The position numbers were made by a program, and so were the translations under genes. This document shows, piece after piece, positions 4,336 to 35,593 of a stretch of DNA of 39,535 bases. Every line of letters starts with the position of its first letter. Position 1 is the first letter of the stretch. The notes below the pieces were generated by a model. It was given only the letters and a program-made list of their open reading frames with translations. It did not search any database and had not been told where the DNA came from. This DNA comes from Bacteroidota bacterium (lineage in GTDB: Bacteria; Bacteroidota; Ignavibacteria; UBA10030; SZUA-254), in assembly GCA_035292425.1 (NCBI GenBank), contig DATDQD010000066.1, positions 1-39,535 on the forward strand, given 5' to 3'.

Positions 4336-4340
4336 CGGGC

Positions 4341-6110: not shown

Positions 6111-6116
6111 GAATGT

Positions 6117-9816: not shown

Positions 9817-9882
9817 AGATGAATATACGTATCTCCCGTCTGAAAATCACCGGGAGCCCGCCTGAGAAATTTCCGGCTCCCG

Positions 9883-14301: not shown

Positions 14302-14311
14302 ATCCTCGGGT

Positions 14312-16768: not shown

Positions 16769-16782
16769 TGTTCACTCCGGGA

Positions 16783-17310: not shown

Positions 17311-17338
17311 GGGTAGTCGCACGGATGAATGAAGGAGT

Positions 17339-19005: not shown

Positions 19006-20505
19006 TCAGGTTTTATCGTACAGGACATCCTTCTTATCGGGGGGATGTTTTTCGAGCCGCTTTACGTAGACATAGACCAAAACAGAAAGCGCCGTCATGA
19101 TGAATGTTGCTATCGCCAGGCCCCAGCGCCTGAAATAATATTCCTCGATCGCGATCCGGGCTTCGGTTGTGACCACCGCGGTCACGACGACTCCGTTGTC
19201 GATCACTTCCCGGAATTTCCCGATGTCGAACGAGTGAACCATCGTGCGCGACTCCAGCCTTGCCTGGCGGGCGTCGCGCAATTTAAACTTGGCGTCGGTG
19301 ATTTCCATCCCTTTTTGTTCCGCTTCATTGACGAGCGCCGTCGCACCCTTTTCCGCCTGCTCGAGGCTGTCCGCGAGCGTGCGCATCGTCGACGCCACCT
19401 GATAGGCCTTCGATTCCGGTTCGCCCCCGTGGCACCAGCTGCAGACCGCCTCTTCGGAAACGCCCAGGAGCTTTTCCGAGGCGGCGAGAATTTCGTGGTT
19501 GCCATGGCACGTTTCGCATTCCGGCATGTTCGCGCTGTCGAAGGCTTTCTTGTGCGGGCTGGTTGCAAAGAGCTCGGCGTTGAGGGCGTGGCACGTGCCG
19601 CAGACATGGGACACGGATTCCACGCCCGGGGGAGCCGCAGCGTGATTTCCATGGCAGTCGTTGCAGGCCGGGGCGCCGATATCGCTTTTTTCGAGGAGGG
19701 CGACGCCATGGACGCTCTTGGAATACTCATCGAGCTGGTCCGATGCGATCCCGTATCCCTTCATGTAGCGGGCGTCGGCGTGACAGGTCCCGCATGTCGC
19801 GGGAATGTTCCACGGATAGACGCGGGATTTGACGTCCTTCGCCGACCGGATCTCGTGGCCCCCGTGGCAGCTGGCGCACTCCGCGACCTTCCGATCTCCC
19901 TTCGCGTTCCGTTTCCCGTGAACGCTGGTCCGGTATTTCTCGACCTGATCCACCGGCAATGCGGGATTATAGGTGCGCATGTACGACGGGTTGGAATGAC
20001 ACTTCCCGCACGTTTTCGTCACGTTCAACGGATACACCGGTGAACTGACATTGTCCACGGGGACCACCCCGTGAGCGTTGTGACAGGTCGCGCACTGTAC
20101 GATGCTTTCCTTGCCGCTGACCGATCCCTTTCCGTGCACGCTGGCGGCCAGCAGCTCCTGCTGATCCCACGGGAGATCGGATTTATATTTATTCACCATG
20201 ACCGCGGCGCTGGCGTGGCAGCCCGCGCACATGCGCGTCACGTCGTCTCCTTTCGGGACCCCCGCGAATCCCGCCGCGGGAGCCATCGCCTTCTCCATGT
20301 CGTCCGCGGTGCGATCGCCCCCGTGGCAGTCGGCGCACGAAACACCCTTCTCCCGATGGATGTCGTTCCTGAACAGTACGGCCGGCCCGTCGCCGAGGGT
20401 TTCATGGCACGTTAGGCACTGGTCCTGGGCGTTGCCGTCAGAGTGCGCTGAGCAGCAGATCGCGGCGAGAAAGAGGAGGCGAATAATCCGGAGATGACGT
20501 TTCAT
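19006..20505 (-). CDS. Undecaheme cytochrome c with C-terminal membrane anchor (third subunit of the Rieske/cyt b complex)
   Basis: ATG 20505 ([18 protein letters not shown]...) overlaps the cyt b TGA (ATGA). 11 CXXCH motifs. C-terminal [23 protein letters not shown]. The longer track ORF to 20901 runs into the cyt b gene. Confidence 0.85.
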
Positions 20506-21581
20506 GAGAGCCATCCGAGAATAGTCAGGACGATGATGTACATGACGGCGACTATACCGATATAATTGATCAGTCGGTTTTTCTCTCTGCGGGAACTTTT
20601 TCTGTCCCAGAAAGGAACGATCGTCCACAGGAATCCGGCGAGCCCGAACATGAGGATGCCCAGGACTTCGCCGTCGATGATGACCACCTTCGCCGGGATG
20701 TATTTCAGCGTTTGAAACATGAACATGAAATACCACTCCGGCTTGATGCCGGCCGGGGCGGGGGCGAAGGCGTCGGCTTTCTGTCCCAGCTCCCACGGGA
20801 AGAAGACGGCGAGGATCGCGAGAAGATTCAGCACGATCAGCCACAGGAGCAGGTCCCGCAGCAGAAAATTCGGAAAGAAGGGCATCGTTTTTCCAACCCA
20901 CTCCAGCTCGCCCTCGAGGGCCATGGGTTCGCTCATTCCCTGGCGTTGCACCAGAATGAGGTGGATTCCCAGGAGAACGGTGAAGATTCCCGGGAAAACG
21001 GCGACGTGGAAGCCGAACAGACGCGACAGCGTGGCGCCCGTGACGTCCTCGCCGCCCCGGAGAAAGATCATGATCGGCTTTCCGATGATCGGGACGACCC
21101 CGGCGATATCCGTACCCACTTTCGTCGCGAAGAAGGCGAGTTCATTCCACGGGAGCAGGTATCCGCTGAACCCGAATCCCAGCACGAGGAAAAACATCAG
21201 CATGCCGGTCAACCACGTCATCTCGCGGGGTTTCCGGTAGGCCTTGGTGAAGAAGACGCTGAACATGTGGATCATGGCGGCCAGGACGAAGAGGTTCGCC
21301 GCCCAGCTGTGTACCGACCGGATGAGCCAGCCGAACATCACCTTCGACATGATGAATTTAATGCTTTCGAAGGCGAGTTCTTCGCTGCCCTTATAGTAGA
21401 GCAGAAGGAGTATTCCCGTGACGACCTGGATGATGAACAGGAACAGCGATACCCCCCCGAAGTAGTACCAGACGGAGTGGCTGTGCACCGGCACGTACTT
21501 CTTGCCGAGGAACCCGACGAGGTCCTCCAGGTGGACCCTGTCATTCACCCAGTAGTACAATCGTTTGAGCTTCTTGTTCAT
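20502..21581 (-). CDS. Cytochrome b (b6-like N-terminal part fused to a subunit-IV-like part)
   Basis: His pairs H-x13-H ([16 protein letters not shown]) and H-x14-H ([17 protein letters not shown]). PEWY Qo motif (IKPEWYF). 359 aa. Confidence 0.9.
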
Positions 21582-22036
21582 GCCTTTTTCGATATTAAGA
21601 CCTCCTCACCCTGCACGATCACGCGGAATTCGTCGAGCGGTCTGGGCGGCGGACCGGCGATGTTGCGGCCCGTCAGATCGTAGGTACCGTTATGACAGGC
21701 GCACCAGATCGTTCCTTTTTCACGGCGATACTGAACGGTGCAGTCCAGATGGGTGCAGACCGCCGAGAACGCCCTGAATTCCCCCTCCTGTGTGCGAACC
21801 AGCAGCACTGGTTTCGTTCCGAACTTGATGATCTGACCGCTGTCTCGGTCAAACTCATCCACCTTCCCCGCTTTTACTGTGGATACCTCGACCTCTCCCG
21901 ATTTAGGCGGCTTCAGATACGCAACGATGGGATACAGGACCGAACCGGTGAGCGCGGCCAGGCTGCTCCCCAACATGACCTTAAGGAAATCCCTTTTACC
22001 CGGATTCCGAACTTTATTCTGTTCACTCACTGTCAT
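21578..22036 (-). CDS. Rieske [2Fe-2S] subunit
   Basis: Tat-like leader (GKRDFLK) and the cluster boxes CTHLDC and CACHNG. ATGA overlap with the cyt b start. Confidence 0.9.
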
Positions 22037-22102: not shown

Positions 22103-23329
22103 TCATCCCCGGTCAATCGCGACCGCGGATCCGCCATCCGGCGCAGTTTCTCTCCAGGGTGGGAATATCTTAAAAAGGATCGACAAAATCACGAAAGGAA
22201 GCACCAGCAGGAGGAGGGTCATCAATAAACCTTCGAGGCCCGTAATATCCATCTTGTAGGTCGTCAAACCCCGGAAACTCTTCGAAAACATCTGCCCTCC
22301 GATGACCACATTCCACCTGGTGGCAAAGATGCCGAGTTGAATGAGAATCACCGAAACGAAATACAATAATTTTCTCAGTTCATCCTCGAACCTGAATAAT
22401 TTTATGCTGATCATGATCCCGAGCGGCAGCAGCATGCCGAGAAGAACCTGAATGATCCCCAGACTGATAAAGAGTTTGTTCATCACGAGTTCCGATAATA
22501 TTTTTATGGACTCCTCGCTCTCGTACAACCGGTGGATAAAATCAAGAAGTTCAAGGGAGAAATCCACGATGACTGCATAAAACAGAAACGATGCCATCCG
22601 GTCGAGGCATTTCATGTCGATTTTTTCATTCCTGAACGGGAGGATGATCATATAGAGTGTAATGACCAGGGCGATCCCCGAGACGATCGCGGAAAAAAGG
22701 AACACAATCGGCATCAGAACGCTGCTCCACCATGGGTTCGCCTTGATCGATCCGAAAATGAATCCCACATACCCGTGAAGAAGGAACGCCGAAGGAATGC
22801 CGATGATCGTGATCGCCTTGACGACTTTCCTGTCGAAGTTGACCGCCCTCTCGCTGATATCGGTCGAAAAGAGCGCCGTGGCCCGGTGAATCCATTTCAT
22901 GGGAAATTTCTCTGATGCCGACCAGACGATCAGGTCCCTCCGGTAGGTGAACCAGAGTTCGAGGAGCAGGACCACCATCAAATACCACGCATAGACGAAT
23001 CCGAACATCGCCATGGCGGAGCTGAAGTTCGGGTTGAGGAATATTTCATAGGACCGGAAGGGATGACCCAGGTGAAAAAGAAGCGGAAGGGGGGCGATGA
23101 GAAGGAAGGCCAGAGCGGTCAGCAACGAGAGTTTATAGACCGACTGCAGTTCCTTCACGTTGAATACCTTGACGAGAGACGCAAGGATGAAGGCCCCGGC
23201 GACAAGCCCGGTGAGATAGGGATAGACCACGATCAGAATCGACCAGTGTACTTCAATCTCATTCGGATAAATATACCCGCTGACCTGACTGAGTAATTCC
23301 ACAAGTTTGTCCGGGATTGGATTGATCAT
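22103..23329 (-). CDS. NrfD-family polytopic membrane quinone-interacting subunit
   Basis: 408 aa and highly hydrophobic (about 10 TM). Start overlaps the FeS gene stop (ATGA). Noticeably lower G+C than the flanks. Confidence 0.82.
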   Translation of the reverse strand: MINPIPDKLVELLSQVSGYIYPNEIEVHWSILIVVYPYLTGLVAGAFILASLVKVFNVKELQSVYKLSLLTALAFLLIAPLPLLFHLGHPFRSYEIFLNPNFSSAMAMFGFVYAWYLMVVLLLELWFTYRRDLIVWSASEKFPMKWIHRATALFSTDISERAVNFDRKVVKAITIIGIPSAFLLHGYVGFIFGSIKANPWWSSVLMPIVFLFSAIVSGIALVITLYMIILPFRNEKIDMKCLDRMASFLFYAVIVDFSLELLDFIHRLYESEESIKILSELVMNKLFISLGIIQVLLGMLLPLGIMISIKLFRFEDELRKLLYFVSVILIQLGIFATRWNVVIGGQMFSKSFRGLTTYKMDITGLEGLLMTLLLLVLPFVILSILFKIFPPWRETAPDGGSAVAIDRG

Positions 23330-24069
23330 CGCACTTCTCCATCAAGTTCTGAGTAGGAGACTTTTGGCTCGGTGTTGAGTGACGGTTTCAACACGTGCAA
23401 TTTATTCATCCGCTTGAACCTGGCAAGCGGGCTTGCCTTGCTCCGGACATCGCCGAATATCCTGGCCTGTGTCGGGCAGACTTCCACGCAGGCCGGCAGC
23501 ATCTCCCTGGTGAGGCGGTGATAACAGAACGTGCATTTATCGGCAGTCATTGTCTCCGGGTGTATGTAGCGTGCCCCGAAGGGACAGGCCTGGATACAAT
23601 ACCGGCATCCGATGCACCTCTCGCTGTCGACCAGGATGACCCCGTCTTCCGTCATGAAGGTCGCCCCCACGGGGCACACCTGTACGCAGGGAGGATTATC
23701 GCACTGATTGCATAATTTCGGGACAAAAAAGCTCCTCATGATCTCCTTTTCATTGATTACATCCCGCGACCCTGCCAGCCTTTCGTCGATGTTCTGTACG
23801 GCGGCTTCGCCGTCCTTCCGGATAATGTAGCGTTCCACCCAGGTACGGAAGAAGAACGGTTCCCGGGGAACGTTGTTTTCGCTCTTGCAGGCCTCGACGC
23901 AGCTTCCGCACCCGATACACTTGTCTATCTGAATTCCCATCCCGTAGTAGTGGAGAGACGGATCGTATCCCTCAGGTGTTTTCGCCCTGGCTTTTTTCCA
24001 CATGCCCGCCAGAAGACCGGTGGAGACAAGAACAGTTGTGGCCTTCCTAAAAAATTTTCTGCGCATCAT
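23326..24069 (-). CDS. Tat-exported 4x[Fe-S] ferredoxin subunit (NrfC/HmcB/DsrO-like)
   Basis: Leader MMRRKFFRKATTVLV. Cys groups CIGCGSCVEAC, CNQCDNPPC..C, CIGCRYCIQAC, CTFCYHR...CVEVC. Confidence 0.9.
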   Translation of the reverse strand: MMRRKFFRKATTVLVSTGLLAGMWKKARAKTPEGYDPSLHYYGMGIQIDKCIGCGSCVEACKSENNVPREPFFFRTWVERYIIRKDGEAAVQNIDERLAGSRDVINEKEIMRSFFVPKLCNQCDNPPCVQVCPVGATFMTEDGVILVDSERCIGCRYCIQACPFGARYIHPETMTADKCTFCYHRLTREMLPACVEVCPTQARIFGDVRSKASPLARFKRMNKLHVLKPSLNTEPKVSYSELDGEVR

Positions 24070-24070
24070 G

Positions 24071-24865
24071 TCAGTCGAGCTCCGGCATATGAGGATAATG
24101 ACATTGCCAGCAAACGTATTTTTCGTTGTGTGTCTTGAGATCTATCTTCGGCGCATCTTTGACTTTTGAATCATCCGAATGACACCCGCCGCAGAATTCC
24201 CTCCCCGCAGGAATCGTGGCATTTACCGCTCGCGGGGACGTTTTATGTCCCCGGGGAACAGTGTGGCACGTTGTACACGTGAGCATGACGTGCGGCGATA
24301 CGGCCTTCGTCCTCGCAATTTCTTCATGGCACGCCCGGCACTCCTCGGGCACATTGGGGGGTTTCGGGTCATGGGGGTTGTGGCAGCTGATGCACGGTTT
24401 CAGCGGATTGTGAATCGCCGGATTGATCTGGGGAAAACCGGTCGGCCGGGATGGATCGTAGATGTGGCAGTGCGCACAAAATTCTCTCTTCCTGGGCGCC
24501 TCCGGCTTCACGGCTCCGGGGTCCTCCGTATGCATCACCGACGGACCGTGGCAGGTTTCGCATGAGAGATTTTGATGGTACCCTTTTTTCTTCAGCTCGA
24601 ACTCTTCGTGGCAATCGGCGCAGATTGATGATCCGGCATAGCGAACGGGCTTTATCGTTTCTCTCTCCACCGTCGACGCGTAATGGATCGCACTATCCTT
24701 CATCGCCGGAGGAATCAGCATCCGGACGACGATCACTGCCCCGATGATGATGGCAAAGGCGACGATCAGCCTCCAGAGGGCGTCCGGGATCCAGGGCGGT
24801 TTGCTTTTCATGGGAGTTTGACGTTGGAAGTCGTTGGCATCGCTCATTAATCGTTGTAATGACAA
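24071..24865 (-). CDS. Membrane-anchored octaheme cytochrome c
   Basis: 8 CXXCH motifs (CADCH, CETCH, CAHCH, CISCH, CRACH, CTTCH, CGGCH, CWQCH). N-terminal TM ALWRLIVAFAIIIGAVIVV. The alternative ATG at 24847 would give a TAATG junction with the upstream gene. Confidence 0.85.
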   Translation of the reverse strand: MSLQRLMSDANDFQRQTPMKSKPPWIPDALWRLIVAFAIIIGAVIVVRMLIPPAMKDSAIHYASTVERETIKPVRYAGSSICADCHEEFELKKKGYHQNLSCETCHGPSVMHTEDPGAVKPEAPRKREFCAHCHIYDPSRPTGFPQINPAIHNPLKPCISCHNPHDPKPPNVPEECRACHEEIARTKAVSPHVMLTCTTCHTVPRGHKTSPRAVNATIPAGREFCGGCHSDDSKVKDAPKIDLKTHNEKYVCWQCHYPHMPELD

Positions 24866-26340
24866 TCACTGCAGTTCATCTCCATCCAGGCATTCCCGAT
24901 GTCGATCGGGTGCCGGTAGGAAATCCCCCCGAGGGAAATCCTGACGGTGTCGGCTACAAATTGCTGCGCCAGGATTGTGTGGCACAGGTTGCAATCCTTG
25001 GAGAGGACTTTCCCGTCTTCACTCCGATGTTTGCCGTCGTGACACCGGAAACACCCCGGGTAATAGAGGTGACCGATGTTATCGGTGAACCTTTTCCAGT
25101 CTGTCTTCATCTCGGGGAAATAATTGCGGGCGTAGAGCAACTGGACCTGCCCGACGGCACTGTCGAGCGCGGATTTCATCGTGGTCAAAACATCGGGATA
25201 ATGATTACGGTAATAATTCTCCATCGTGATCCGGATCGTGTCCAGCCCGCCCTGTTTCGTGGAATACTCCCCCTCCAGGGCCTCCACCGATATGGCCTTT
25301 ACCGACGGAAGGGCAGGATCGATCCAGCCCAGCGACATGATGTGATTCACCGAACGCGCCGGCGGATGGTAGATGTGCGTCGGTCGGTTATGGCAGTCGA
25401 TGCAGTCCATGCGGCGCGTGAATGCCGCCTCGAGCGAATCTTCCGGGACCTCGATTTCCGCGCTGCGGTAAATCACCTCGGCTCCGTCCGGTGTGCGCGA
25501 CCGGATCCACGGGATGATCTGGCGTTCCCGGTCAAGGGCCCTGTACGTGACCTCGTGCGCGATGTTCATGTGCCAGTGGATTCCGGAGGTCGGGCCCGCC
25601 TCGATATTTCCACCCCCGATTTTCATCAGCAGGTTGATGCTCCACCGGGAATTCCGCTCATCGGCGAGATAGTACGTGTTCACCTTCTGCTTCTCGCTGA
25701 AAAAATGCCTGGGCCAGTGACACTGCTCGCACGTTTCCTGCGCCGGCCGCAGGTTCTCGATGGGGGTGGGAATGGGCGTGGGATATTTATTGAATGCCAC
25801 CGCGTACATCTGGTAGCTTCCCGAGATTTTGGAACGGACGAACCAGTCGGCTCCCGACCCGATGTGGCACTTTACGCAGCCCACCTTCGCGTGCGGCGAG
25901 AACTGGTACGCGGTGTATTCCGGTTCCATCACATTGTGGCATGTTTCACCGCAGAACTGGTCTGAATCCGTATATTCATACGCCTTAAAACTGCCGAACG
26001 CCGAGAAGAGCAGGAGCAGGACGCCGCCGATCGACGTAAACACGAATGCCGCGCGGTGACGGGGATTGTTCAGGTCTATCTTGGGGAGGTGGAGGCCGTG
26101 CGGCTTGCCGATCCGCTCGCGGTAGTACTCCCGCACCAAACCAAAGATCATCACGGCGATCCCGAGGAGCAGGAACACCGGCAGGATGACAAACGTGATG
26201 ATGCCCATGTAGGGCTTTTGCTGCTCGGCCATCGTCTCTATCAGGATCAGGAAGAGGATCAGCCCGAAGCTGACGCCGGCGATCGCCGTGCCGAGAAGAG
26301 TGATGAGATTATAGAATGAAGGGGGAAATATGCGCTTCAT
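24847..26340 (-). CDS. ImcH-like inner-membrane multiheme cytochrome (3 TM plus NapC/NirT-like 7-heme domain)
   Basis: 497 aa. Three N-terminal TM helices. Six CXXCH motifs (CVKCH, CEQCH, CIDCH, CFRCH, CNLCH, CSDCH) plus one CX3CH (CGETCH). This matches what I recall of Geobacter ImcH (3 TM, 7 hemes, about 500 aa). Confidence 0.72.
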   Translation of the reverse strand: MKRIFPPSFYNLITLLGTAIAGVSFGLILFLILIETMAEQQKPYMGIITFVILPVFLLLGIAVMIFGLVREYYRERIGKPHGLHLPKIDLNNPRHRAAFVFTSIGGVLLLLFSAFGSFKAYEYTDSDQFCGETCHNVMEPEYTAYQFSPHAKVGCVKCHIGSGADWFVRSKISGSYQMYAVAFNKYPTPIPTPIENLRPAQETCEQCHWPRHFFSEKQKVNTYYLADERNSRWSINLLMKIGGGNIEAGPTSGIHWHMNIAHEVTYRALDRERQIIPWIRSRTPDGAEVIYRSAEIEVPEDSLEAAFTRRMDCIDCHNRPTHIYHPPARSVNHIMSLGWIDPALPSVKAISVEALEGEYSTKQGGLDTIRITMENYYRNHYPDVLTTMKSALDSAVGQVQLLYARNYFPEMKTDWKRFTDNIGHLYYPGCFRCHDGKHRSEDGKVLSKDCNLCHTILAQQFVADTVRISLGGISYRHPIDIGNAWMEMNCSDCHYND

Positions 26341-26456: not shown

Positions 26457-27425
26457 TCATCGATAGGCAAAGAGCATCGCGTAAATGATCCAGAGCACCA
26501 CGCTGAAGCCGATGGTCAGCGCCGTCCAGCCGAACGCCTTGACGGCCCGTGTGACGATCGGCTGGTAGGGTTCGACGAGGCGGGATTCGAGCCGGCCGCT
26601 TTTGACGAGTTCCTCGTATTCCGCCGGCTTGTCCAGCGCGAATTCGTCAACGTCCATACGCCCCGTGAAGATGACGATGTCCATCGGGAATTTTTCCGGG
26701 CGGAGATGGGTGTTGAAGAAGTGCACGGTGAAGATAAACCCCACGGCGAGCAGGGCCTCGTCGCTGTGGATGATGGTGGCCACGTTGAGCAGCGAGCCGG
26801 GCATGAAGTTGGTGAAGAGTTCCGGGAACCAGAGCATCAGGCCGGTCGAACCGATGACCGCCACGCCCCAGAAGACGGCGAAATAATCGAACTTCTCCCA
26901 GTAGGTCCACCGGCCGAACCGCGGGCGCGGTCCCCTGCCGACGAACCACTTCACAGAGCCGATGAAATCGGAAAGGTCCTTCCCGTTGAACATCATCGAG
27001 TCGGGGCTGAAGATCATCGACTTCCACGTCCGTCCATCCCGCTTCTTCATCCTCAGGACGTCGATGACATGGATGAAGAAAACGGCGAACATGATGACCG
27101 CGGCGAACCTGTGGAGGGATCCCGCGCTCTCGAACCCGCCGAGGAGGTGCGAGAGCAGAACCGCCCAGCCGGTGTATGAAAACTTGAGCGTCAGGCCGGT
27201 GAGCGCGAGCGTCAGAAAGCTGATGATGAGGAAAATGTGCAGTGCCCTGTTGAGCCTGCTGAAACGGAGGAATTGACGTTCTCCCGCGGGAGAGCTTTCC
27301 TCCGCAGGAAAGTACGATGACCCTGCCTCCGTGGCCGTCGGCGTGGAAGGGGACGGGGATGGGGACGGCGCCGGTGCGGAACCGCCGGAGGAGTCCTTCT
27401 GCGCACTGTCGTTCCGGTTATCCAT
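26457..27425 (-). CDS. Diheme cytochrome b, HydC/FdnI/PhsC-like (CbcB-like)
   Basis: ATG 27425 (MDNRND...) overlaps the upstream stop by 8 nt. Four to five TM helices with conserved His (RALHIF, SLHRFAAVIMFAVFFIH, IIHSDEA, TVHFF). Clearly paralogous to the C-terminal domain of 29433..31751. Confidence 0.8.
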   Translation of the reverse strand: MDNRNDSAQKDSSGGSAPAPSPSPSPSTPTATEAGSSYFPAEESSPAGERQFLRFSRLNRALHIFLIISFLTLALTGLTLKFSYTGWAVLLSHLLGGFESAGSLHRFAAVIMFAVFFIHVIDVLRMKKRDGRTWKSMIFSPDSMMFNGKDLSDFIGSVKWFVGRGPRPRFGRWTYWEKFDYFAVFWGVAVIGSTGLMLWFPELFTNFMPGSLLNVATIIHSDEALLAVGFIFTVHFFNTHLRPEKFPMDIVIFTGRMDVDEFALDKPAEYEELVKSGRLESRLVEPYQPIVTRAVKAFGWTALTIGFSVVLWIIYAMLFAYR

Positions 27426-29436
27426 CCTGTCCGTCTTTCGGGCCGCCCGCACTCCCGGGTTCATCGTCCGCGGCGCCCGGCGGCTGCGCGCCGTTCTTCT
27501 CTTCCAGATGTTTCGCTTTCAGCAATCGACGGTACTGGAACGCCCGGGGGAGCCAGAGGAGCGTGTGGACGCCGCCGAGAAGGAACGTTCCGATCAGGAG
27601 CGACGTCATCCCCCAGAACGTCCAGAAGAGGAAGGGATATTTTTCCGGGTCGTGGTGCGTCGCGTGGGTCAGGTACCCGGCGAACCGCCTCGACGCCCCT
27701 TCGTGGCACTTCTGGCAGGTGCCGACGACGTTGTCGTGGCTCAGGTGCGAGCGGGGATCGGCCACGGGGAGGATGTCGTGGGCGCCGTGGCAGTCGTAGC
27801 ACTTCGCCGTCTTCGTGTAGCCGAGCTGGGACACCTTCCCGTGGTAGGTATCGAAGTAGGTCTCGGCGATCTTCTCGTGGCACCGCCCGCACTGCTGCAT
27901 GATTTCAAGCTTGAAGCCCTGGGAGTCCGCCCGCCTGATCTTGTGCGCGGTATGGCAGTCGTCGCAGACCGGGAGATCTTTTCCGGACTTCGAGACGAGT
28001 TTCGAATGGATGCTCTTTTGGAACTGCTCTTCGATGCCGTGGTGACACTTGCCGCACGTCTTCGGGAGGTTCCGGGGATTGACGCTGGAGAGGCTGTCGC
28101 TCCGCGGGAGCACGCTGTGCGGCGTGTGGCAGTTGCTGCACATCGCGGTCACGGTGAGCCCGCTCTTCATCAGTCCCTTGCCGTGAATGCTCTCGGTGTA
28201 CAGCTCGATGATCTGGTGCTCGATCCCCGTGTAGCGGACGGCGGCTTTCTGGCCCTCCCGGTGGCACCGTGCGCAAAGGAGGGGAACGTTTGTCGGGAAC
28301 GTCGGCGACGAAGGATCCAGTTTCCCCTTCACGCCGTGCTGCCCGTGGCACTCCTTGCAGGCCGGACCGTTCGGGTCGTTGTTGGTGACGAGTTTTCCGT
28401 GGAGACTGACGGTAAATTGCTGGCCCACCTCGGCATGGCACGACGAGCAATCCACTTTTTTTGTGATCGCATCGCAGGGACGCACATTCGATGCGTTCAC
28501 ATCCGAGTGGCACTGGCTGCACGATATCTTCTGGTGCCTCGACACACCGAGCTCCTGTGCCCGCACGAAGAGCGGCCTTCCGTCCCGGGAGGACTTCAGA
28601 TCCGGTCTCTCGTGGCAGGTGAGGCAGTCCCTGTCGGCCATTCCCTGCGTGTAATAAACTTTCCGGACCTTGTGCGGCTGGTGGCAGTCCACGCATGCCG
28701 GGAGGACGTGCTGTTCCTTCTCCCACAATTCGCCCTTGATCACCTTGCGGTGGACCGTTTCGATCTCGGCGTGGCACTTCGCGCAGGTCGAGGCGATGTT
28801 CTTCCGGGCGATCGATGACGCCGGGTTTGTGTGGGGCAGGATCGAGTGCCCGGTATGGCACGAGGCGCAGTTCGGCGCGACGATGAGCCCCTTTCTCAGG
28901 AGCCCCTCGCCGTGGATGCTCTCCGAAAAATTCTCCAGAATGTTGTCCTGGTGGATCACCCGCTGCCGCTGGACCGGGGATCCCTCCTGGTGACACTTTC
29001 CGCAGAGGAACGGGATTTTCAGAGGCGAAATGGCGGAATTACGATCCGATTTCGGCAGGATATTGTGTGTGCCGTGGCAGTCGTTGCAGCGCGGGGCGAG
29101 CCTGTCCCCCCGTGCCGCGGCCTGGCCATGGAGGGACTTCGATTCTTCGGCCTGTTCGGCCGAATGGCAGCCGCCGCAGTCCACCGGCGCGACGTCCTCC
29201 TCGTGGGGGAACTGCTTCCCGGCCAGGCCGGCGTGGCAGGAGACGCAGCCGTTCGACCCGTGGACCGAGCCTGCGTGGGTGTTCGCGTTGACGTACACCG
29301 AAATCTTTTTCCCGCCGCGTCTCCCCTCGAGCGATTTATCCTCGTGGCAGGAGAGGCAGTCGGCGTCCTCCTGCGCGAACGCGGGAATCGCAAGGAGAAG
29401 CAGGAGCGCCGGCGTTATAAAAATCCGCCGGATCAT
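27418..29436 (-). CDS. 19-heme cytochrome c with signal peptide and C-terminal TM anchor (CbcA-like, expanded)
   Basis: 672 aa, 19 CXXCH motifs counted by hand. C-terminal TM FLFWTFWGMTSLLIGTFLLGGV. ATGA overlap with the upstream gene stop. Confidence 0.85.
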   Translation of the reverse strand: MIRRIFITPALLLLLAIPAFAQEDADCLSCHEDKSLEGRRGGKKISVYVNANTHAGSVHGSNGCVSCHAGLAGKQFPHEEDVAPVDCGGCHSAEQAEESKSLHGQAAARGDRLAPRCNDCHGTHNILPKSDRNSAISPLKIPFLCGKCHQEGSPVQRQRVIHQDNILENFSESIHGEGLLRKGLIVAPNCASCHTGHSILPHTNPASSIARKNIASTCAKCHAEIETVHRKVIKGELWEKEQHVLPACVDCHQPHKVRKVYYTQGMADRDCLTCHERPDLKSSRDGRPLFVRAQELGVSRHQKISCSQCHSDVNASNVRPCDAITKKVDCSSCHAEVGQQFTVSLHGKLVTNNDPNGPACKECHGQHGVKGKLDPSSPTFPTNVPLLCARCHREGQKAAVRYTGIEHQIIELYTESIHGKGLMKSGLTVTAMCSNCHTPHSVLPRSDSLSSVNPRNLPKTCGKCHHGIEEQFQKSIHSKLVSKSGKDLPVCDDCHTAHKIRRADSQGFKLEIMQQCGRCHEKIAETYFDTYHGKVSQLGYTKTAKCYDCHGAHDILPVADPRSHLSHDNVVGTCQKCHEGASRRFAGYLTHATHHDPEKYPFLFWTFWGMTSLLIGTFLLGGVHTLLWLPRAFQYRRLLKAKHLEEKNGAQPPGAADDEPGSAGGPKDGQDG

Positions 29437-31751
29437 TTTTTCTCCCCTTCGCGGCCTTCGGGCTTTGCCCCGGTGGCGGGTTTTCCGCCAGGCGTTCCCG
29501 TTCCGGGTTTGCCCTCCAGCTTCTCCCCCATCATTTCATCCGCGGGAAGTTCTTTCCTGATCCGCCCCGCGACGATCCGCCGCAGTTCGAGCGGATGGTC
29601 TTCCTCCATCTCCTCCTCCGTCAGCGTGCCTTTCCAGAACGCCACGTTGAGGGGGTAGACGTCGGGGTTGAAGATCACAAAATAGAAGTGCCACACGATG
29701 ACGGCCAGCGTGGCCAGCCACGCCTCGTAGTAGTGGATGGTGCGCGCCACGTCGTATCCCAGCTTCGTGAGCAGGCCGATGAAGGTATTGTCGAACCACA
29801 TGATGAGCCCGGTGACGCCCATGACGGAGGTCCCCCAGAGGAGGGCCCAGTATTCCGCCTTCTCGATGTAGCAGAACCGGTCGAAGAGCGGGCGGGTGCC
29901 GGACAATCCGAGGTTGTATTTCATCATCGCGATGGCGTCCTTCGCGTCCTGGCGGCGCGGGAGCATGTCGAAAATCAGCCGGCGCCCGGGGACCGTGAAG
30001 AATACGTACCAGACGTGGTAGAAGCTCGCGGCCAGCATGACCACCCCGGCGACGCGGTGGATCAGGCTCCTGGTGTCGAAGACGGAATCGCTCAGCGCCC
30101 GTATCCACTGCACCCACCAGACCTCGGGGAACCTGAGCATGAACCCGGTAACGACCAGCGTCATGAAGCTCAGCAGGAGAGCGGCATGCTGGACGCGCTC
30201 GTTCTTGCTCATCCTCGGGTAGAGTTCGTGGCTCGTATAGGGATGGGGGATGAGCCCGCGGCGGATCATCAGCTTCCGGCGGGACTTCTTTACGAAATCG
30301 AGCGCATTGTGCGCCAGCATCCCGCCGATGGTGAGCACGATCAGGAGGATGTAGGCCGTCGCGATCCAGTAGAGCATCGGCTCCTCCGTCCGCGACGACT
30401 CGTCCACGTGGACCCGGCCGATGGTGAAGCGCTCGTTGGCCCCGGGGTGGCAGCTTCCACAGGTCCCGGCAAGGTTGGCCTTGCTGATCATGGATGTGGA
30501 ATCGGCCGACGACTTGATATTATGCGTCCCGTGGCAGCTGGCGCAGTTGGCGACTTCGACCGAACCGCCGCGGATGGCAAGGCCGTGGTAACTGTCGGAG
30601 AAGGTCTTGAACCGGTCGCTCTCGATGCCGTACTTGGTCGAGAGGGCGACGGAACTGTGGCAGGGCGAGCAGACCTGCGCCGAGAGGTTCTGCCTGGCGA
30701 CGGGCGATTTCGGGTCGGTGTGCTTGAGGATCGTGTGCTCACCGTGGCAGTCCGTGCAGGTCGGCGCGTCGACCACGCCCTTCTGCACCGCGACTCCGTG
30801 CGCGCTCTGGTTGTACACGTCCGCGATCTCGCCGTGGCACTTCGAGCAGGTCCCGGCGATATTCAGCTTGCTGACCTTCGCCGCCGGATCGTATCCCTTC
30901 GCCATCTGGTGGCTGCCGTGGCAGTCGACGCAGTTCGGCGCCCTGTCATTCCCGTTCATGAGGGCGCGGCCGTGGACGCTCTGTTCGTAGGCCGCGATGA
31001 AACCCGCCGACGGCGATGTCCGCGCCCGGACGTCGGGATTGTCCAGGTGGCAGGTAAGGCAGAGCCGTTCCTGCGCGAGTTTCATACCGACGCCGTTATC
31101 CGGGTGGCTCGCCGGAGTGATGTCGTGGCCGTGGCAGCCGAGGCATTCCGGCGCGCCCTTCACGCCGGCGGCGAACGCCCCGCCGTGCGCGGAGGCCGCG
31201 AACTGTTCCACCACGTCGCCGTGGCACTGGCCGCAGCCCTCGGATATGTTCGCGCGGTTGAACGGCGACTCTTTCTCTTTCGGCGAGATGACATTATGGG
31301 TCCCGTGGCAGTCCTTGCACGACACCGAAGGCTCCTCTTTCCGGGCGATGGCCTGTGCCAGCTGGGGATGGAACCTGTGCTTCAGCTCGGCGCCCTTGTG
31401 GCAGGTGAGGCACTCCACCGGCCGGATGTTTTTCCTGTGAGGCATTTCCGCGGGATCGAAACCGGGGTGGCAGGCGGTGCAGACGAGCTTCTTATGCGGC
31501 GAACGGCCGAGCACGGCGGCGTCGACGAAGAGCGGCACCTGCGCCCCGTTTCTTTCGGTTGTGAGCGACGTGTCCGAGTGGCAGGCCAGGCAGTCGTCCC
31601 TCGACTGCGCCCTCGCCGGTCCGCTCAGGATCCAGAACGCGGCGAAGAGCAATGCGGCCGCCGCGAAGACGACCGTGATCAGGAGGCGGACGCAGAGGCG
31701 CCGGAAGGCGTCTCCCGGTGTTGGAGTGTCCGTGTTCACCGGGGCATTCAT
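29433..31751 (-). CDS. Fusion: 13-heme cytochrome c domain plus C-terminal diheme cytochrome b membrane domain (CbcL-like architecture)
   Basis: ATG 31751 (MNAPVNTD...) forms an ATGA overlap with the upstream stop. 13 CXXCH motifs, then 5 TM with conserved His (RVQHAAL, LIHRVAGVVMLAASFYH, TIHYYEA, VWHFY). Confidence 0.85.
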   Translation of the reverse strand: MNAPVNTDTPTPGDAFRRLCVRLLITVVFAAAALLFAAFWILSGPARAQSRDDCLACHSDTSLTTERNGAQVPLFVDAAVLGRSPHKKLVCTACHPGFDPAEMPHRKNIRPVECLTCHKGAELKHRFHPQLAQAIARKEEPSVSCKDCHGTHNVISPKEKESPFNRANISEGCGQCHGDVVEQFAASAHGGAFAAGVKGAPECLGCHGHDITPASHPDNGVGMKLAQERLCLTCHLDNPDVRARTSPSAGFIAAYEQSVHGRALMNGNDRAPNCVDCHGSHQMAKGYDPAAKVSKLNIAGTCSKCHGEIADVYNQSAHGVAVQKGVVDAPTCTDCHGEHTILKHTDPKSPVARQNLSAQVCSPCHSSVALSTKYGIESDRFKTFSDSYHGLAIRGGSVEVANCASCHGTHNIKSSADSTSMISKANLAGTCGSCHPGANERFTIGRVHVDESSRTEEPMLYWIATAYILLIVLTIGGMLAHNALDFVKKSRRKLMIRRGLIPHPYTSHELYPRMSKNERVQHAALLLSFMTLVVTGFMLRFPEVWWVQWIRALSDSVFDTRSLIHRVAGVVMLAASFYHVWYVFFTVPGRRLIFDMLPRRQDAKDAIAMMKYNLGLSGTRPLFDRFCYIEKAEYWALLWGTSVMGVTGLIMWFDNTFIGLLTKLGYDVARTIHYYEAWLATLAVIVWHFYFVIFNPDVYPLNVAFWKGTLTEEEMEEDHPLELRRIVAGRIRKELPADEMMGEKLEGKPGTGTPGGKPATGAKPEGREGEKK

Positions 31752-32578
31752 CTTACGTGGTGCACTTCCTGTATCGCCTCGATGACGAGGGGGAAATACC
31801 GGTCGAGGGCGCACTCGACGTCGTCGCGCATGTCACAGTGCCCGTCCGGCGACTGGTGCTGGCAGACGGAGCAGACCTTCTCCCTCAGTCTGGCGACATA
31901 CGCGTCGAGGTTGTCGCCCGGGGTGGTGAGAACGATATCGATGATCTCCGGCAGGTAGCGGTTGATGGCGCAGGAGTCGTATGTGGACGCGACGCAGAGT
32001 CCCGATGGGGTGCGATCGATGCACTTCATGCAGACCCTCTGCCGTATTTCCTCGAGGTAGCGTTCTTCGTAAGGCATGATGGTCCTCTCTTCTGTGTTCC
32101 ATGGTAGCGGATCGGTGAATTTCCTGGCGGGCGACCCGGGCTTGACGATCATGACCGGAACCGCGGCGTTTCTGACGATCTGGTCGGCAATCCCCCCGGC
32201 GCGGACAGGATCCCCCGGCGAATCGGCCCGGACAGGGAGCACGATGACGTCCACGCCTTCCTCGCGCGCGAACCTCAGGATTTCCCGGGCCGGGACCCCG
32301 TTCCGGACGATGCAGGCGAATCGTGATTGCGGCCTGATTTTTTTCAGGAAGAAATCCTCCATCGCGCGATACTTCTTCCGCATCTCCGCGTCCCCCTCCG
32401 CCGATTCGCCCGGTCCCGGGGCGATCCGGTCGGGCGTCCGGGTGATGACGTGGATCAGGTAGATCTGGGATTTCTTCTCCCTGGAAAGCGTCAATGCGGC
32501 TTCGACGGCACAGAGCGACGCGTCCGTTAAATCCACGGGGACGAGTATCCTGTTCATATTTGTCAGTTTTTTCGACAT
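31748..32578 (-). CDS. Universal stress protein (UspA) domain fused to a duplicated 4-Cys C-terminal module
   Basis: Start at ATG 32578 (MSKKLTNMNRILVPVDLTDAS... is USP-like). C-terminus has two CX2CX8CX7C repeats, each followed by A-[IL]-[ND]-RY-[LF]-P. The track ORF extension to 32830 crosses an AT-rich intergenic region and the crp stop. Confidence 0.75.
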   Translation of the reverse strand: MSKKLTNMNRILVPVDLTDASLCAVEAALTLSREKKSQIYLIHVITRTPDRIAPGPGESAEGDAEMRKKYRAMEDFFLKKIRPQSRFACIVRNGVPAREILRFAREEGVDVIVLPVRADSPGDPVRAGGIADQIVRNAAVPVMIVKPGSPARKFTDPLPWNTEERTIMPYEERYLEEIRQRVCMKCIDRTPSGLCVASTYDSCAINRYLPEIIDIVLTTPGDNLDAYVARLREKVCSVCQHQSPDGHCDMRDDVECALDRYFPLVIEAIQEVHHVR

Positions 32579-32637
32579 CCCTGTATAAAATATAATCAAT
32601 CCCCGGTTCCGCGGGTATGATATGGAAAAGGTCGAAA

Positions 32638-32653
32638 CATGATTTTTATCATG
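32638..32653. promoter_or_regulatory. Perfect 16-bp palindrome CATGAT-TTTT-ATCATG (FNR/CRP-family-like TGAT-N4-ATCA core)
   Basis: Read directly from the sequence. Centred about 67 nt upstream of ATG 32578, in the AT-rich gap between the Crp/Fnr gene and the USP/cytochrome operon. Confidence 0.4.
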
Positions 32654-32826
32654 TATCACCCCGGAAGCGCCTAAAGTGTTGAAAATTTCGGGGAGGACGG
32701 TTGAGGGATCAGGGATGACGGAAATCGTGAAACGGGTGGTGTTTAAGCGGTGCCGCGCCTGATATGGAGCGGCGCAGGACGGGGGTGGAGCCGGGAACGG
32801 GGACGGTTCGGCGGCGAGTTGCCCGG

Positions 32827-33537
32827 TCAATCCGGAAGCCGGGCCGCGTCGCGCAGGGCGGGCAGGTTCACGATCTTGATCTTCTTCCCCTCGAGGAGGA
32901 GGATCCCCTCCTTCGAGAATTCGGAGAGGAGGCGGATGACCGTTTCTGTCGCGGTGCCGATGTAATTGGCGATGTCTTCCCTTGAGAGTTTGCTTCGAAG
33001 GGTATGGTGGTCGTCCTCGGTGCCGTAAAACTCCGTCAGCATCAGGAGCGTTTCCGCCAGGCGTTCCCGCACCTGTTTCTGCGAGAGCGACACCTGCTTC
33101 TGTTCGGCCTTGGCCAGGTCCTGCGTGAGCTGGCGGATGATTCTGCCGGTGAGCGCGGGATTTTCGTTCATGAGCGAGTGGAACGTCTGGCGGGGGACGA
33201 AACAGATCGATGCGTCCTCGATGACGGTGGCGGAGAGCTCGTAGGGCGTCCCGCTCACGAGCGCCCTGTATCCGACGACGTCCCCCTCGCGGGCCAGGCG
33301 GACGATCTGTTCGCGGCCGGCCTCGCCCACCTTCGTCAGCTTGACCTTGCCCCGGTTGATGCAGTAGAGGCCCGAGGGATAGTCGCCCTCGTAGAACAGC
33401 ACCTGGCCGCTCCGGTGGAAATTACATCCCTTGTGGAGCTGGAGCCTCCCGAGTTCGTCCTGCGAGAGTACGCCGAACATGGAATGGAGGCGCGGCAGGC
33501 ACGTTTCGCAGTGGGGTATTTCGAATGTGTTTTTCAT
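32827..33537 (-). CDS. Crp/Fnr-family transcriptional regulator
   Basis: Start at ATG 33537 (MKNTFEIPHCETC...). cNMP-binding-like beta-roll (GDYPSGLYCINRGKVKL), C-terminal HTH REDIANYIGTATETVIRLLSEF with an FNR-type E..R recognition helix. Confidence 0.85.
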   Translation of the reverse strand: MKNTFEIPHCETCLPRLHSMFGVLSQDELGRLQLHKGCNFHRSGQVLFYEGDYPSGLYCINRGKVKLTKVGEAGREQIVRLAREGDVVGYRALVSGTPYELSATVIEDASICFVPRQTFHSLMNENPALTGRIIRQLTQDLAKAEQKQVSLSQKQVRERLAETLLMLTEFYGTEDDHHTLRSKLSREDIANYIGTATETVIRLLSEFSKEGILLLEGKKIKIVNLPALRDAARLPD

Positions 33538-33602
33538 CGCCCGGGGGTACCATGAAACATAAGATTTTCCCCCTTCACGGTCAACAGGCGGCGGCGGACA
33601 GG

Positions 33603-34640
33603 TCACCGCCGCAGCGGGACGGGCCTGTCGTTGAACGTGACCCGGGCCGGCATCTCCGATCTGTCGAATTCCAGCCGCAGTACGAACGGTATGTCCCGTT
33701 CACCGAGGCCAACGGCTTTCGCGATGCGCGGGTCCACCGAGAACTGGAGGTCGCGGAATTCGACCGTATGGAAATCGCCCACGGTCCGGGTCTCCAGGGT
33801 CGGAAAGCGGGCGAAGCGGAGGTATTCCCCCGCGAACTCCGTTCGGGACGCTTTGGAGGCGAACCGATCGGTGTCATTGGGGAAGTACTCCGGTTCCGAA
33901 ACGCCGCCGTCCGACAGGAGTTCGATGTATTGCCGCACCACCCCGGAATCGGTCGTGGCCAGCCCGACCCACTTCAGGATGCTGAGCGGCTGCGGGAGCA
34001 CGGAAACTGTGAGTGTTTCCCTCCCCGATTTCCGGAGTTCGTCCCGGAAGATGCCGAGAGCAACGGATTGAAACCGGTATTCCGCGCCGAGATAGAGCAG
34101 GGCGAAGGCGACAGAAAGGTATCCCAGGACCGCGCGTCTCCGGGGGAAGATTTTCCCTGCGGCGAGAAGCAGCGTGAGGATACCCGTAAACCACGGATCG
34201 ATGATGAACATCCAGTCGAGCGAGAACCTCGTCTCCGAGAACGGAAAGAGGATCTGCGTGCCGTAAGGCGTGATGAGGTCGATGAAGATATGGAAGAGGA
34301 TGCCCGCCATCGAACAGATCCAGAGCCGCCGGAACCCGGCGCGCGCCGTGGCGAGGTGGACGACGAACGCCGGGACTAGCGCCAGCAGCGGGATCCCGGG
34401 AAGCGAATGGGTGAAGCTCCGGTGGTACTGCAATGCCGTGAGCGGCTCGACGAAGAAATTCGCCACCACGTCGATGTCCGGGATGTTCGACGAGAGGAGC
34501 AGCGCCCAGAACACTGCGCGCCCGGTTTTCGGGCGGTGCGCACGGCTCCCGCTCCCTGCAGGCTCGGCAGAAGCGGCGGAATCGTCCGGGAGCACACGCC
34601 CGGCGAGGACGCCGACGAGCGAATGCGTGATGTTGTCCAT
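33603..34640 (-). CDS. Membrane-bound metal-dependent hydrolase (YdjM/DUF457-like) with C-terminal extra domain
   Basis: N-terminus MDNITHSLVG, then HRSFTHSL and FHIFIDLITPYG motifs typical of DUF457. Several TM helices. Confidence 0.6.
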   Translation of the reverse strand: MDNITHSLVGVLAGRVLPDDSAASAEPAGSGSRAHRPKTGRAVFWALLLSSNIPDIDVVANFFVEPLTALQYHRSFTHSLPGIPLLALVPAFVVHLATARAGFRRLWICSMAGILFHIFIDLITPYGTQILFPFSETRFSLDWMFIIDPWFTGILTLLLAAGKIFPRRRAVLGYLSVAFALLYLGAEYRFQSVALGIFRDELRKSGRETLTVSVLPQPLSILKWVGLATTDSGVVRQYIELLSDGGVSEPEYFPNDTDRFASKASRTEFAGEYLRFARFPTLETRTVGDFHTVEFRDLQFSVDPRIAKAVGLGERDIPFVLRLEFDRSEMPARVTFNDRPVPLRR

Positions 34641-34663
34641 CGGTTGCAGGCGGCTGCAGGCGG

Positions 34664-35593
34664 TTACAGGATCTCGGAGATCTCGTGGAGGGTGAAGCGC
34701 GAGCGTTTCCCCTTGAGGGCGACGTCGCTGAACGTCTCGCGGATGCGGACCCGGCCGAAGACCTCACGGACCGCCGTGTCGGAAACCAGCATGGAGGTCC
34801 CGGTCTGCTTGTTGGCGTCCTCGATCCTCTCGGCCACGTTCACGGCATCGCCGATGACCGCCATCTTTTCCATGTCGGCCATGCCGATCGTCCCGACCAC
34901 CACCGGCCCGTAATGGATGCCGATGCGGATGCGGAATTTCCTCCGGTACATGGCCTGCAGGTAAGGGTTGAGGGAATCGACCTCCCAGAGCATCTCGAGC
35001 CCCGCGCGGACCGCGCTGTAGACCGGGTCGGGACGGTCGTCAATTCCAAAAAGGGCCATGATCCCGTCCCCGACGTAATCATTGATCCGGCCCCCGTGGG
35101 CGTCGATCACCCTGCCCATCGTGATGAAGTACCGGCGGAGCGCGTGGATCACGTCGTAGGCGGGAAGCGACTCGGCGAAGGAAGTGTAGTCGCCGATGTC
35201 CGCGAAGAGAATGGCGAGGTTCTTCTCCTCCCCGACCGACCCGAGCTTGAGGCCCGGGCCGATCTGGTTCGAGAGTTGTATGTCGAGGGTGTCCAGGACC
35301 ATCCTGCGCACCGTGACGTCGCCGCTCACGGTGGTCTGGCAGGCGAGCCTCACGTGCGGCCCGAAGTTGAGTTTGTCGGCGATTTTTTCTTCGGCCCCCT
35401 GGCGCATCGAGCATCTGTCCAGTCCTGAAACCACCACGACGCGGCAGGTGGAACAGCGGGCCTTCCCGCCGCAGACGTGGACGTGGGGTATGCCGGAGTC
35501 GAGCGAGGCTTCGAGGATGGTGGTCTTCCCCCCCGCCTTCATCTCCTTCTCGTCCGGGAGCATGAAGATCGTATTGACGCTATCGCCGGCCAT
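34664..35593 (-). CDS. 2Fe-2S ferredoxin domain fused to a class III adenylate/guanylate cyclase domain
   Basis: N-terminus: CGGKARCSTC...LACQT (plant-type-like ferredoxin Cys pattern). C-terminus: ILFADIGDYTSF, YVGDGIMALFG, RIGIHYGPVVVGTIG and VIGDAVNVAERIE cyclase blocks. Confidence 0.85.
   Translation of the reverse strand: MAGDSVNTIFMLPDEKEMKAGGKTTILEASLDSGIPHVHVCGGKARCSTCRVVVVSGLDRCSMRQGAEEKIADKLNFGPHVRLACQTTVSGDVTVRRMVLDTLDIQLSNQIGPGLKLGSVGEEKNLAILFADIGDYTSFAESLPAYDVIHALRRYFITMGRVIDAHGGRINDYVGDGIMALFGIDDRPDPVYSAVRAGLEMLWEVDSLNPYLQAMYRRKFRIRIGIHYGPVVVGTIGMADMEKMAVIGDAVNVAERIEDANKQTGTSMLVSDTAVREVFGRVRIRETFSDVALKGKRSRFTLHEISEIL

Follow-up and report, generated by a model that had tools for sequence, protein, structure and literature searches.

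The 39,535-nucleotide (nt) contig DATDQD010000066.1 of a Bacteroidota bacterium of the Ignavibacteria lineage (assembly GCA_035292425.1), referred to in the following as the window, carries two related units in which a multihaem cytochrome c is combined with a membrane-bound cytochrome b of predicted dihaem type. In one unit the two modules form a single polypeptide (gene A), while in the other they are encoded by two overlapping genes (B and C). A, B and C, as well as the downstream gene D, lie on the minus strand, and the features of the two units are as follows (aa, amino acids; His, histidine).

29433..31751, minus strand: gene A, fused 13-haem cytochrome c, anchor helix and predicted dihaem cytochrome b of the A-type subfamily; 772 aa from ATG.
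30447..31592, minus strand: predicted periplasmic haem domain of A, with 13 CXXCH motifs at aa 54-435 and 13 invariant non-motif His.
30297..30377, minus strand: anchor helix of A (aa ~459-485, by hydropathy), with the conserved His481 at nt 30309..30311.
29652..30215, minus strand: b domain of A, four-helix and FdnI-like, with His522, His565, His579, His673 and His688; no sixth helix.
27418..29436, minus strand: gene B, 19-haem c-type cytochrome with signal peptide and C-terminal anchor helix, putative c subunit of the split unit; 672 aa.
28657..29247, minus strand: internal repeat of B, copy 1 (aa 64-260), covering haem motifs 2-8 of a unit whose eight-haem period is seen in the motif spacing.
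27928..28521, minus strand: internal repeat of B, copy 2 (aa 306-503), haem motifs 10-16.
27547..27639, minus strand: anchor helix of B (aa ~600-630), with the conserved His624 at nt 27565..27567, followed by a ~45-aa tail on the predicted cytoplasmic side.
27418..27425, minus strand: B/C junction, ATGGATAA, where the start of C lies over the stop of B (8 nt; translational coupling).
26457..27425, minus strand: gene C, separate FdnI-like cytochrome b of predicted dihaem type; 322 aa from the ATG at 27425.

The original prediction for this DNA, made by a model from the letters, had described A as one polypeptide with 13 CXXCH motifs, one transmembrane helix and a four-helix cytochrome b, and B as a protein with 19 CXXCH motifs ending in a single helix, and exactly these counts were obtained when both genes were re-derived from the sequence. 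Its separate 322-aa cytochrome b with an 8-nt overlap holds if C is started at the ATG at 27425; an in-frame upstream ATG at 27464, which is the start chosen by one public gene call (P0121), gives 335 aa and a 47-nt overlap with B. For A, a GTG at 31814 is an alternative start (793 aa). The A-B overlap is the 4-nt ATGA, and on the basis of the 4- and 8-nt overlaps the three genes are probably co-transcribed. The 8-nt ATGGATAA/ATGGATGA overlap is also present in the two nearest relatives (L001 and L002), with other geometries in 39 further species.

Protein A was scanned against one genome per species, and the resulting 80 loci were tabulated by open reading frame (ORF) and BLASTP. The haem count of the A-type protein is 13 in nearly every complete copy among these loci, and more than 6,400 homologues of gene A exist in the databases, the best 120 of which are all fused and ~690-860 aa long. 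By hydropathy, A starts with a signal-like or anchor helix, and five membrane helices (anchor plus four) follow the signal peptide, the anchor helix beginning ~28 residues past the last haem motif. In a 52-sequence alignment the invariant non-motif His are residues 86, 105, 125, 128, 152, 189, 260, 281, 318, 339, 389, 410 and 448. The anchor-helix His481 is kept in 77 of 77 A-type sequences, and a hydrophobic C-terminal tail, which would form a sixth helix, is missing in 76 of the 77 (hydropathy). Gene A matches Pfam PF01292 (Ni_hydr_CYTB) with 56.3 bits (cut-off 30.1) and has further Pfam matches to PF14522, PF14537 and PF09699. In the AlphaFold2 model of A (mean predicted local distance difference test score, pLDDT, 73.6), the best match in the PDB by Foldseek is FdnI (1kqf_C), with a probability of 1.00 and a template modelling score (TM-score) of 0.73 normalised to the target.

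In gene B, for which 19 haem motifs are again counted across the surveyed loci, the motif spacing (37, 23, 30, 28, 45, 28, 30, 23, 35, 24/25, 30, 28, 45, 28, 30, 25, 30, 28) recurs with an eight-haem period, and 21 invariant non-motif His on the predicted periplasmic side stand beside the 19 haem motifs. The two repeat copies are 38% identical (expectation value, E, 3e-46), and aa 268-604, with the last 11 haems, align to the whole of 11-haem relatives (47% identity to the representative P0281). Haem counts of 7, 9, 11, 13, 15, 17, 19 and 22 are met across the family, and this series suggests growth by module insertion.

Gene C has no CXXCH motif and matches PF01292 with 42.1 bits (cut-off 30.1). 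It is made of a low-complexity N-terminal tail (aa 1-50), a four-helix core with His63, His105, His119, His220 and His235, and an extra C-terminal helix (aa 298-321), so that its helices number five as against four in the b module of A, which corrects the original prediction; by hydropathy, the extra helix is present in all 53 C and fused BC sequences. The N-terminal head of C (27276..27425; ~50 residues) is rich in Pro, Ser, Thr and Ala, and the ~45-residue tail of B in Gly, Pro and Asp, whereas the fused orthologues have only a ~20-residue linker between anchor helix and b domain, without low-complexity tails; the cut linker appears to have grown on both sides in the split forms. Gene C has more than 6,800 homologues, and the best 120 are all stand-alone proteins of 258-335 aa. 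In the source databases gene C is named “formate dehydrogenase gamma subunit”.

The b modules of both units share their candidate haem ligands with FdnI. In a HMMER alignment of gene C to 1kqf_C, all four FdnI haem-ligand His (His18, His57, His155 and His169) are in register, and these columns are 99-100% conserved over 212 b domains, while the overall sequence similarity to FdnI is marginal (E 0.024); a sequence search of the solved structures returned this marginal match and no member of the family with a structure. A further correction to the original prediction is that both units carry an added, conserved His in the anchor helix. It is found in 98% of 211 sequences, including 46 of 46 split B and 10 of 10 fused BC sequences, and in every split case it is borne by B. 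The resulting five-His pattern (helices 1, 2 and 3, and two in helix 5) corresponds to His481, His522, His565, His673 and His688 in A and, in the split unit, to His624 of B with His63, His105, His220 and His235 of C. One more His (His579 in A, His119 in C), located where the second b helix reaches the cytoplasmic side, is invariant in the A, C and BC sequences. Ahead of the third b helix there is a conserved R-x3-Y-x-E-K loop, whose Y-x-E-K segment lines up with the part of FdnI that contains its quinone site. In the haem domains, the 13 invariant His for 13 haems in A and the 21 for 19 in B make bis-His ligation of the c haems plausible; in CbcL, all nine haems have been found to be bis-His by experiment (PMC9129911).

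Whether a gene boundary between B and C is genuine can be judged from the surveyed loci. Both parts are present in 52 of them, as two genes in 42 and as one ORF of 926-988 aa in 10, the latter in Gemmatimonadota, some Acidobacteriota and one member of the Ignavibacteriales; among the remaining loci, 5 have B only and 22 have A but neither B nor C, with A directly before D in 9 of these. Both states thus occur at orthologous loci, where the original prediction had advised looking for them. The prediction had also allowed for the split being an assembly frameshift, in which case, as for a sequencing frameshift, the true gene would be one 19-haem fusion, and there is some ground for the suspicion: fused orthologues exist, the reading frame of C stays open over the 13 codons that precede its ATG, and A-type genes broken up by frameshifts are present in some long-read assemblies. 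The last point is exemplified by a long-read metagenome contig (L081, 6001..6903 and neighbours), in which an A-type gene lies in five pieces and a sigma-54 activator is also broken; this frameshift-riddled sequence identifies stand-alone “A-type cytochrome b” database entries of its kind as artefacts. The B/C boundary, however, recurs in 42 independent species-level genomes with proper starts and with junctions that range over 4-, 8-, 11-, 14- and 23-nt overlaps and short gaps, in all three relative frames. Moreover, the 8-nt overlap is shared by the nearest relative, an independent Ignavibacteria metagenome-assembled genome (MAG) with 84% identity in A, the split forms possess the long low-complexity tails that fused forms lack, and the closest 120 database relatives of C stand alone, as stated above. 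The frameshift explanation is refuted by these observations and deserves next to no credence. A search with the b domain of A for a genuinely split A-type gene gave short proteins, mostly on contigs of 1-3 kb and with inconsistent starts (at A residues 275-495), and the one case on a long contig that was examined is L081, described above. These hits were rejected as evidence for a split A, and no genuine split of an A-type gene emerged.

A different objection would be that B and C are independent, B being a tethered periplasmic cytochrome and C the b subunit of another enzyme, as the database label and a weak match to TIGR01583 (formate dehydrogenase gamma subunit) might indicate. The match amounts to 46.9 bits for C (44 bits for A), far below the equivalog cut-off of 115.85, and profile scans of the window revealed no formate dehydrogenase catalytic genes near the locus, nor are hydrogenase catalytic genes adjacent. 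B and C are neighbours in all 42 split loci and fused in the other 10, and C clusters with the b domains of the fused 19-haem proteins in 96 of 100 bootstraps. Independence of the two genes is very improbable on this evidence. The conserved start/stop overlap, the 10 natural fusions and the anchor His on B indicate instead that B and C act as one unit, and since the anchor helix of B carries a near-invariant His, B would have to dock onto C in the manner of FdnH on FdnI.

Within the clade of C and BC sequences, fused and split forms are interleaved, and 19-haem proteins in the fused state are its nearest outgroups. By Fitch parsimony, the neighbour-joining tree calls for three fused/split changes with a fused root, and at least two changes are required in all 100 bootstrap trees. 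Fission or fusion at the anchor-helix linker can thus be taken as real and recurrent, and as limited to the B+C lineage.

The relationship of A to B+C is of another kind. The pairs of motifs that the original prediction had aligned by eye are real, the b modules of A and C being 33% identical over 234 aa (BLASTP, E 5e-29), and the haem domains of A and B are 29% identical (E 5e-51). The same prediction had concluded that a duplication was followed by gene fission or fusion at the anchor helix, and several of its elements stand, namely the whole-length homology, the presence of one fused and one split unit, and a break in the linker just after the anchor helix. As a single local history it is not supported; fission and fusion occurred inside the B+C lineage only. 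In particular, neither b domain has the other as its closest relative, the outcome that had been named beforehand as refuting the proposal: when the b domain of C was searched against 1.84 billion representative proteins, 2,357 relatives were found, and the best 150, which were examined, are 38-69% identical to C, all closer than A. These 150 have 0-22 haem motifs, those without motifs being stand-alone b proteins or fragments, and they include proteins with the haem spacing of Geobacter CbcL. The b module of A is 26-34% identical to all other family members compared.

A tandem duplication in this lineage, followed by splitting of one copy or fusion of the other, would account for the adjacency of the genes, which is conserved, and for the full collinear architecture common to both units. 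It is difficult to reconcile, however, with the b-domain tree (212 sequences, neighbour-joining, 100 bootstraps), in which the A-type sequences form a clade of their own (100 of 100 bootstraps), separate from the clade of C and fused BC, and all rank after about 140 others as neighbours of C. In all 44 loci with both genes, the distance from A to its own C is 1.5-1.9 substitutions per site; these uniformly large values also rule out gene conversion between A and C. The two b modules differ in helix number, fused and split states alternate within B+C orthologues only, and gene order varies between phyla, being A-B-C-D in Ignavibacteria-like genomes and B-C-A-D in Acidobacteriaceae, with the loci that have A alone, or A followed by D, in addition. 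A recent local duplication is therefore very improbable and largely refuted. The inter-locus distances of A-type and C-type b domains show a moderate correlation (r = 0.53), and A and B+C are best described as ancient, separately conserved subfamilies that travel together. In the Acidobacteriaceae/Terriglobales MAGs (L066-L080) the order B-C-A-D comes with one or two Crp-like genes upstream; the A-type proteins of these loci are 36-43% identical to A of the window, and their B and C proteins 60-66%. The A-type proteins appear to evolve faster than B and C.

The two units are embedded in a longer series of genes, of which the following belong to the analysed context.

24847..26340, minus strand: gene D, ImcH-like seven-haem NapC/NirT-type putative quinol oxidase (PF03264, 32.1 bits, cut-off 24.1).
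22103..24865, minus strand: 8-haem cytochrome c, 4Fe-4S protein (DsrO/TtrB-like) and NrfD-type membrane protein.
19006..22036, minus strand: Rieske protein and cytochrome b (bc-complex type), then an 11-haem c-type cytochrome.
12269..18502, minus strand: two more c-type cytochromes, then a molybdopterin oxidoreductase with iron-sulfur (Fe-S) and NrfD subunits (Psr/Ttr/Arr-like).
2846..10716: futalosine-route menaquinone genes (UbiA-type prenyltransferase, UbiD and two VitK2_biosynth proteins).
9042..9716, minus strand: AbiEii/DUF6036-type nucleotidyltransferase (toxin-like gene) between the menaquinone genes.
31748..32830, minus strand: universal stress protein (Usp), upstream of A (Pfam).
32827..33606, minus strand: Crp/Fnr-type regulator binding cyclic nucleotide monophosphates (cNMP), upstream of A (Pfam).
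32827..35593, minus strand: 2Fe-2S ferredoxin/class III adenylate cyclase fusion, then YdjM-like membrane protein and the Crp/Fnr regulator, directly upstream of Usp-A-B-C.

About 20 kb of the window are thus occupied by respiratory electron-transfer genes on one strand. Gene D, with three N-terminal helices (by eye) and a NapC/NirT-like region, is, in most related loci, the gene directly behind A or behind B-C; its haem sites at 130, 155, 204, 313, 430, 450 and 490 match those of an ImcH homologue listed in Table S3 of PMC6295460 (130, 154, 203, 312, 429, 449 and 489). In many loci the trio of Rieske protein, cytochrome b and 11-haem cytochrome is again found downstream of the ImcH-like gene. 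The module at 22103..24865, which resembles Geobacter Cbc4 or alternative complex III and would be a further quinol-interacting module, is found in only some of them (L008, L013, L026, L051 and L068). One of the VitK2_biosynth proteins is fused to a radical S-adenosylmethionine (SAM) MqnC/E-like domain (6117..7979, 620 aa). Upstream of A, Usp and Crp are kept in L001-L004, and in Acidobacteriaceae loci Crp-like genes are found upstream of B; conservation in L001-L003 is 87-90% for the cyclase, 84-90% for Crp and 67-78% for Usp. Cyclase and Crp could be a redox-to-cyclic AMP (cAMP) control circuit for the operon. A promoter and terminator scan gave only weak consensus matches, namely a 5-bp hairpin after C and a promoter-like site (9/12) before D; shuffled sequences yield as much, and no weight is placed on them.

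With regard to function, A, B and C can be assigned to the already catalogued CbcL/MtrH/MtoC superfamily, whose reported homologues come from 15 phyla, have 3-23 haem motifs and are 416-1034 aa long (Zhong and Shi, 2018; PMC6295460). A is collinear with representatives of GSU0274-like haem spacing over its length (27-31% identity, E 1e-55 to 1e-99), and C is 42-49% identical to such representatives. Taken together, the data make it probable that A and B+C are two paralogous inner-membrane bc-type quinol:cytochrome oxidoreductases of this superfamily, with B and C assembling into one enzyme, and electron transfer from menaquinol to the periplasm is their likely role; menaquinone is the likely quinone because the genes of the futalosine pathway are in the same window. 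In the proposed mechanism, a Sec-exported chain would hold bis-His c haems in the periplasm, 13 in A and 19 in B, and would return to the cytoplasm through the single anchor helix, and the four-helix FdnI-like b domain would bind two b haems, one near each membrane face. Menaquinol would be oxidised towards the cytoplasmic face, in a site formed by the R-x3-Y-x-E-K loop. The electrons would move first to the b haem on the cytoplasmic side (bC), next to the one on the periplasmic side (bP), and then along the c-haem wire to partners in the periplasm or the outer membrane; reverse flow may also occur, as proposed for MtoC. In the split unit the polypeptide would be cut in the cytoplasmic linker, and the anchor helix of B would dock on C to give a working membrane module. 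If the quinone site does face the cytoplasm, moving electrons outward would cost membrane potential. CbcL is known for a low-yield, low-potential role, which agrees with this cost.

Several points weigh against this assignment. The function of the A-type and split B+C proteins is read from their sequences, and the family placement was made through catalogued relatives and through representatives recognised by haem spacing, so that the link to GSU0274 itself is indirect. The AlphaFold model of A is of moderate confidence (predicted TM-score, pTM, 0.49). No outer-membrane conduit of the porin-cytochrome type was seen within the window, and the acceptor could be periplasmic. Finally, the CbcL/MtrH/MtoC family has members in both Fe(III) reducers and Fe(II) oxidisers, and no feature separates its quinol oxidases from its quinone reductases (PMC6295460). 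The last two points also speak for a different use of the same enzymes, in which the units would work in reverse, as quinone reductases taking electrons from the periplasm or from outside (Fe(II) oxidation or electron uptake, as proposed for MtoC), or would serve a periplasmic terminal reductase instead of extracellular electron transfer. FdnI itself reduces menaquinone, and a molybdopterin oxidoreductase set and other periplasmic redox modules are found nearby. This possibility has to be kept in mind as the less probable one: the units stand in tight linkage with an ImcH-like gene, homologues of ImcH are reported only from Fe(III)-reducing bacteria (PMC6295460), and genes for a Crp/Fnr regulator and a universal stress protein precede the units. 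Reverse operation or another partner would, in any case, alter the direction or the recipient of the electrons and not the architecture.

A more speculative and rather doubtful extension concerns the two conserved His outside the FdnI set. Both the anchor His (His481 in A, His624 in B) and the second-helix His (His579 in A, His119 in C) would be placed on the cytoplasmic side of the membrane, next to the two FdnI-type ligands of bC, and might jointly provide a site for an additional cofactor or for gating of the quinone. One candidate is a third b haem; another is the alternative ligation of a haem by which CbcL has been proposed to be gated according to redox potential. In the split enzyme such a site would be shared between two polypeptides. 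On the same tentative footing, A, B+C and the ImcH-like protein would be three tiers of potential-graded menaquinol outlets in one block, controlled by the ferredoxin-domain adenylate cyclase and the Crp regulator, and passed between Ignavibacteriota, Gemmatimonadota and Acidobacteriota; the 19-haem wire would be long enough to span most of the periplasm.

Genome surveys take CbcL-type and ImcH-type proteins as markers of extracellular electron transfer. Such surveys can miss the 13-haem five-helix subfamily, very large and uncharacterised, whose thousands of relatives in the databases come from soils and sediments and belong to Ignavibacteriota, Acidobacteriota and Gemmatimonadota, and the two-gene 19-haem form can be overlooked by searches for fused proteins or mislabelled as a formate dehydrogenase subunit. 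The repeated switching between split and fused states is in itself a natural experiment, which points to a specific conserved His; it implies that the anchor helix of the c subunit and the cytochrome b are one obligatory membrane module. The current understanding of these enzymes is not overturned.

Among the known systems, the closest in general plan is CbcL of Geobacter sulfurreducens (GSU0274), which, like A and B+C, combines a periplasmic multihaem cytochrome c, an anchor helix and a HydC/FdnI-like dihaem cytochrome b. Its conserved His, one in the anchor helix, one each in the first and second b helices and a pair in the fourth, make up a five-His pattern described by Joshi et al. (2021; bioRxiv 10.1101/2021.04.15.440034) and shared with both units, and CbcL-family genes, as at this locus, often lie beside imcH or other cytochrome genes. 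CbcL has nine haems and six helices in one polypeptide; A differs in having 13 haems and, by hydropathy, five helices, while B+C has the same six helices (1+5, hydropathy) but a 19-haem pattern and two genes. That the counts of 13 and 19 exceed the 9 of CbcL and the 7 of CbcA, as the original prediction remarked, is correct as to the numbers; they lie within the known range of 3-23, and Table S2 of PMC6295460 includes fused 19-haem proteins from Ignavibacteria, Caldithrix, Gemmatimonadetes and others. Three of these, OGU58019.1 (Ignavibacteria, 952 aa), Cabys_319 (Caldithrix abyssi) and MAF27600.1 (Gemmatimonadetes), have a motif spacing essentially identical to that of B (PMC6295460). The fused 19-haem proteins resemble B+C also in the anchor helix followed by five further helices, and can be regarded as orthologues or near-orthologues of B+C; they differ in being a single chain with a ~20-aa linker, where the window has the B tail and the Pro/Ser/Thr-rich C head. 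A protein of the A type, with 13 haem motifs and five helices, is absent from Table S2 of PMC6295460, the Caldithrix genome paper does not discuss Cabys_319, and the literature searched gave no description of the split 19-haem form or of the A-type subfamily.

At the level of architecture, B+C also resembles CbcBA (GSU0593-0594), in which two genes encode an anchored multihaem cytochrome c and a separate dihaem cytochrome b. CbcA has 7 haems as against 19 in B, CbcB has four helices as against five in C, and CbcB reportedly has no sequence homology to b domains of the CbcL type, to which C belongs (bioRxiv 10.1101/2021.04.15.440034). In CbcBA the C-terminal helix of the c subunit has been proposed to give a His to the b subunit, as in the hydrogenase, and cbcB-cbcA fusions have been reported in Chloroflexi (bioRxiv 10.1101/2021.04.15.440034). 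A more distant parallel is offered by FdnH/FdnI (PDB 1KQF) and by the small subunit and cytochrome b of [NiFe]-hydrogenase, which likewise consist of an anchored periplasmic subunit and a four-helix dihaem b subunit; the gene order there is that of B-C, the anchor-bearing subunit preceding the b subunit. In both, the periplasmic wire is made of Fe-S clusters, where 13 or 19 c haems are predicted here, and both reduce quinone. High haem counts and fused or split bc cytochromes have precedents, therefore, and what is new is the split form of the 19-haem type together with a divergent 13-haem subfamily, within a known kind of enzyme.

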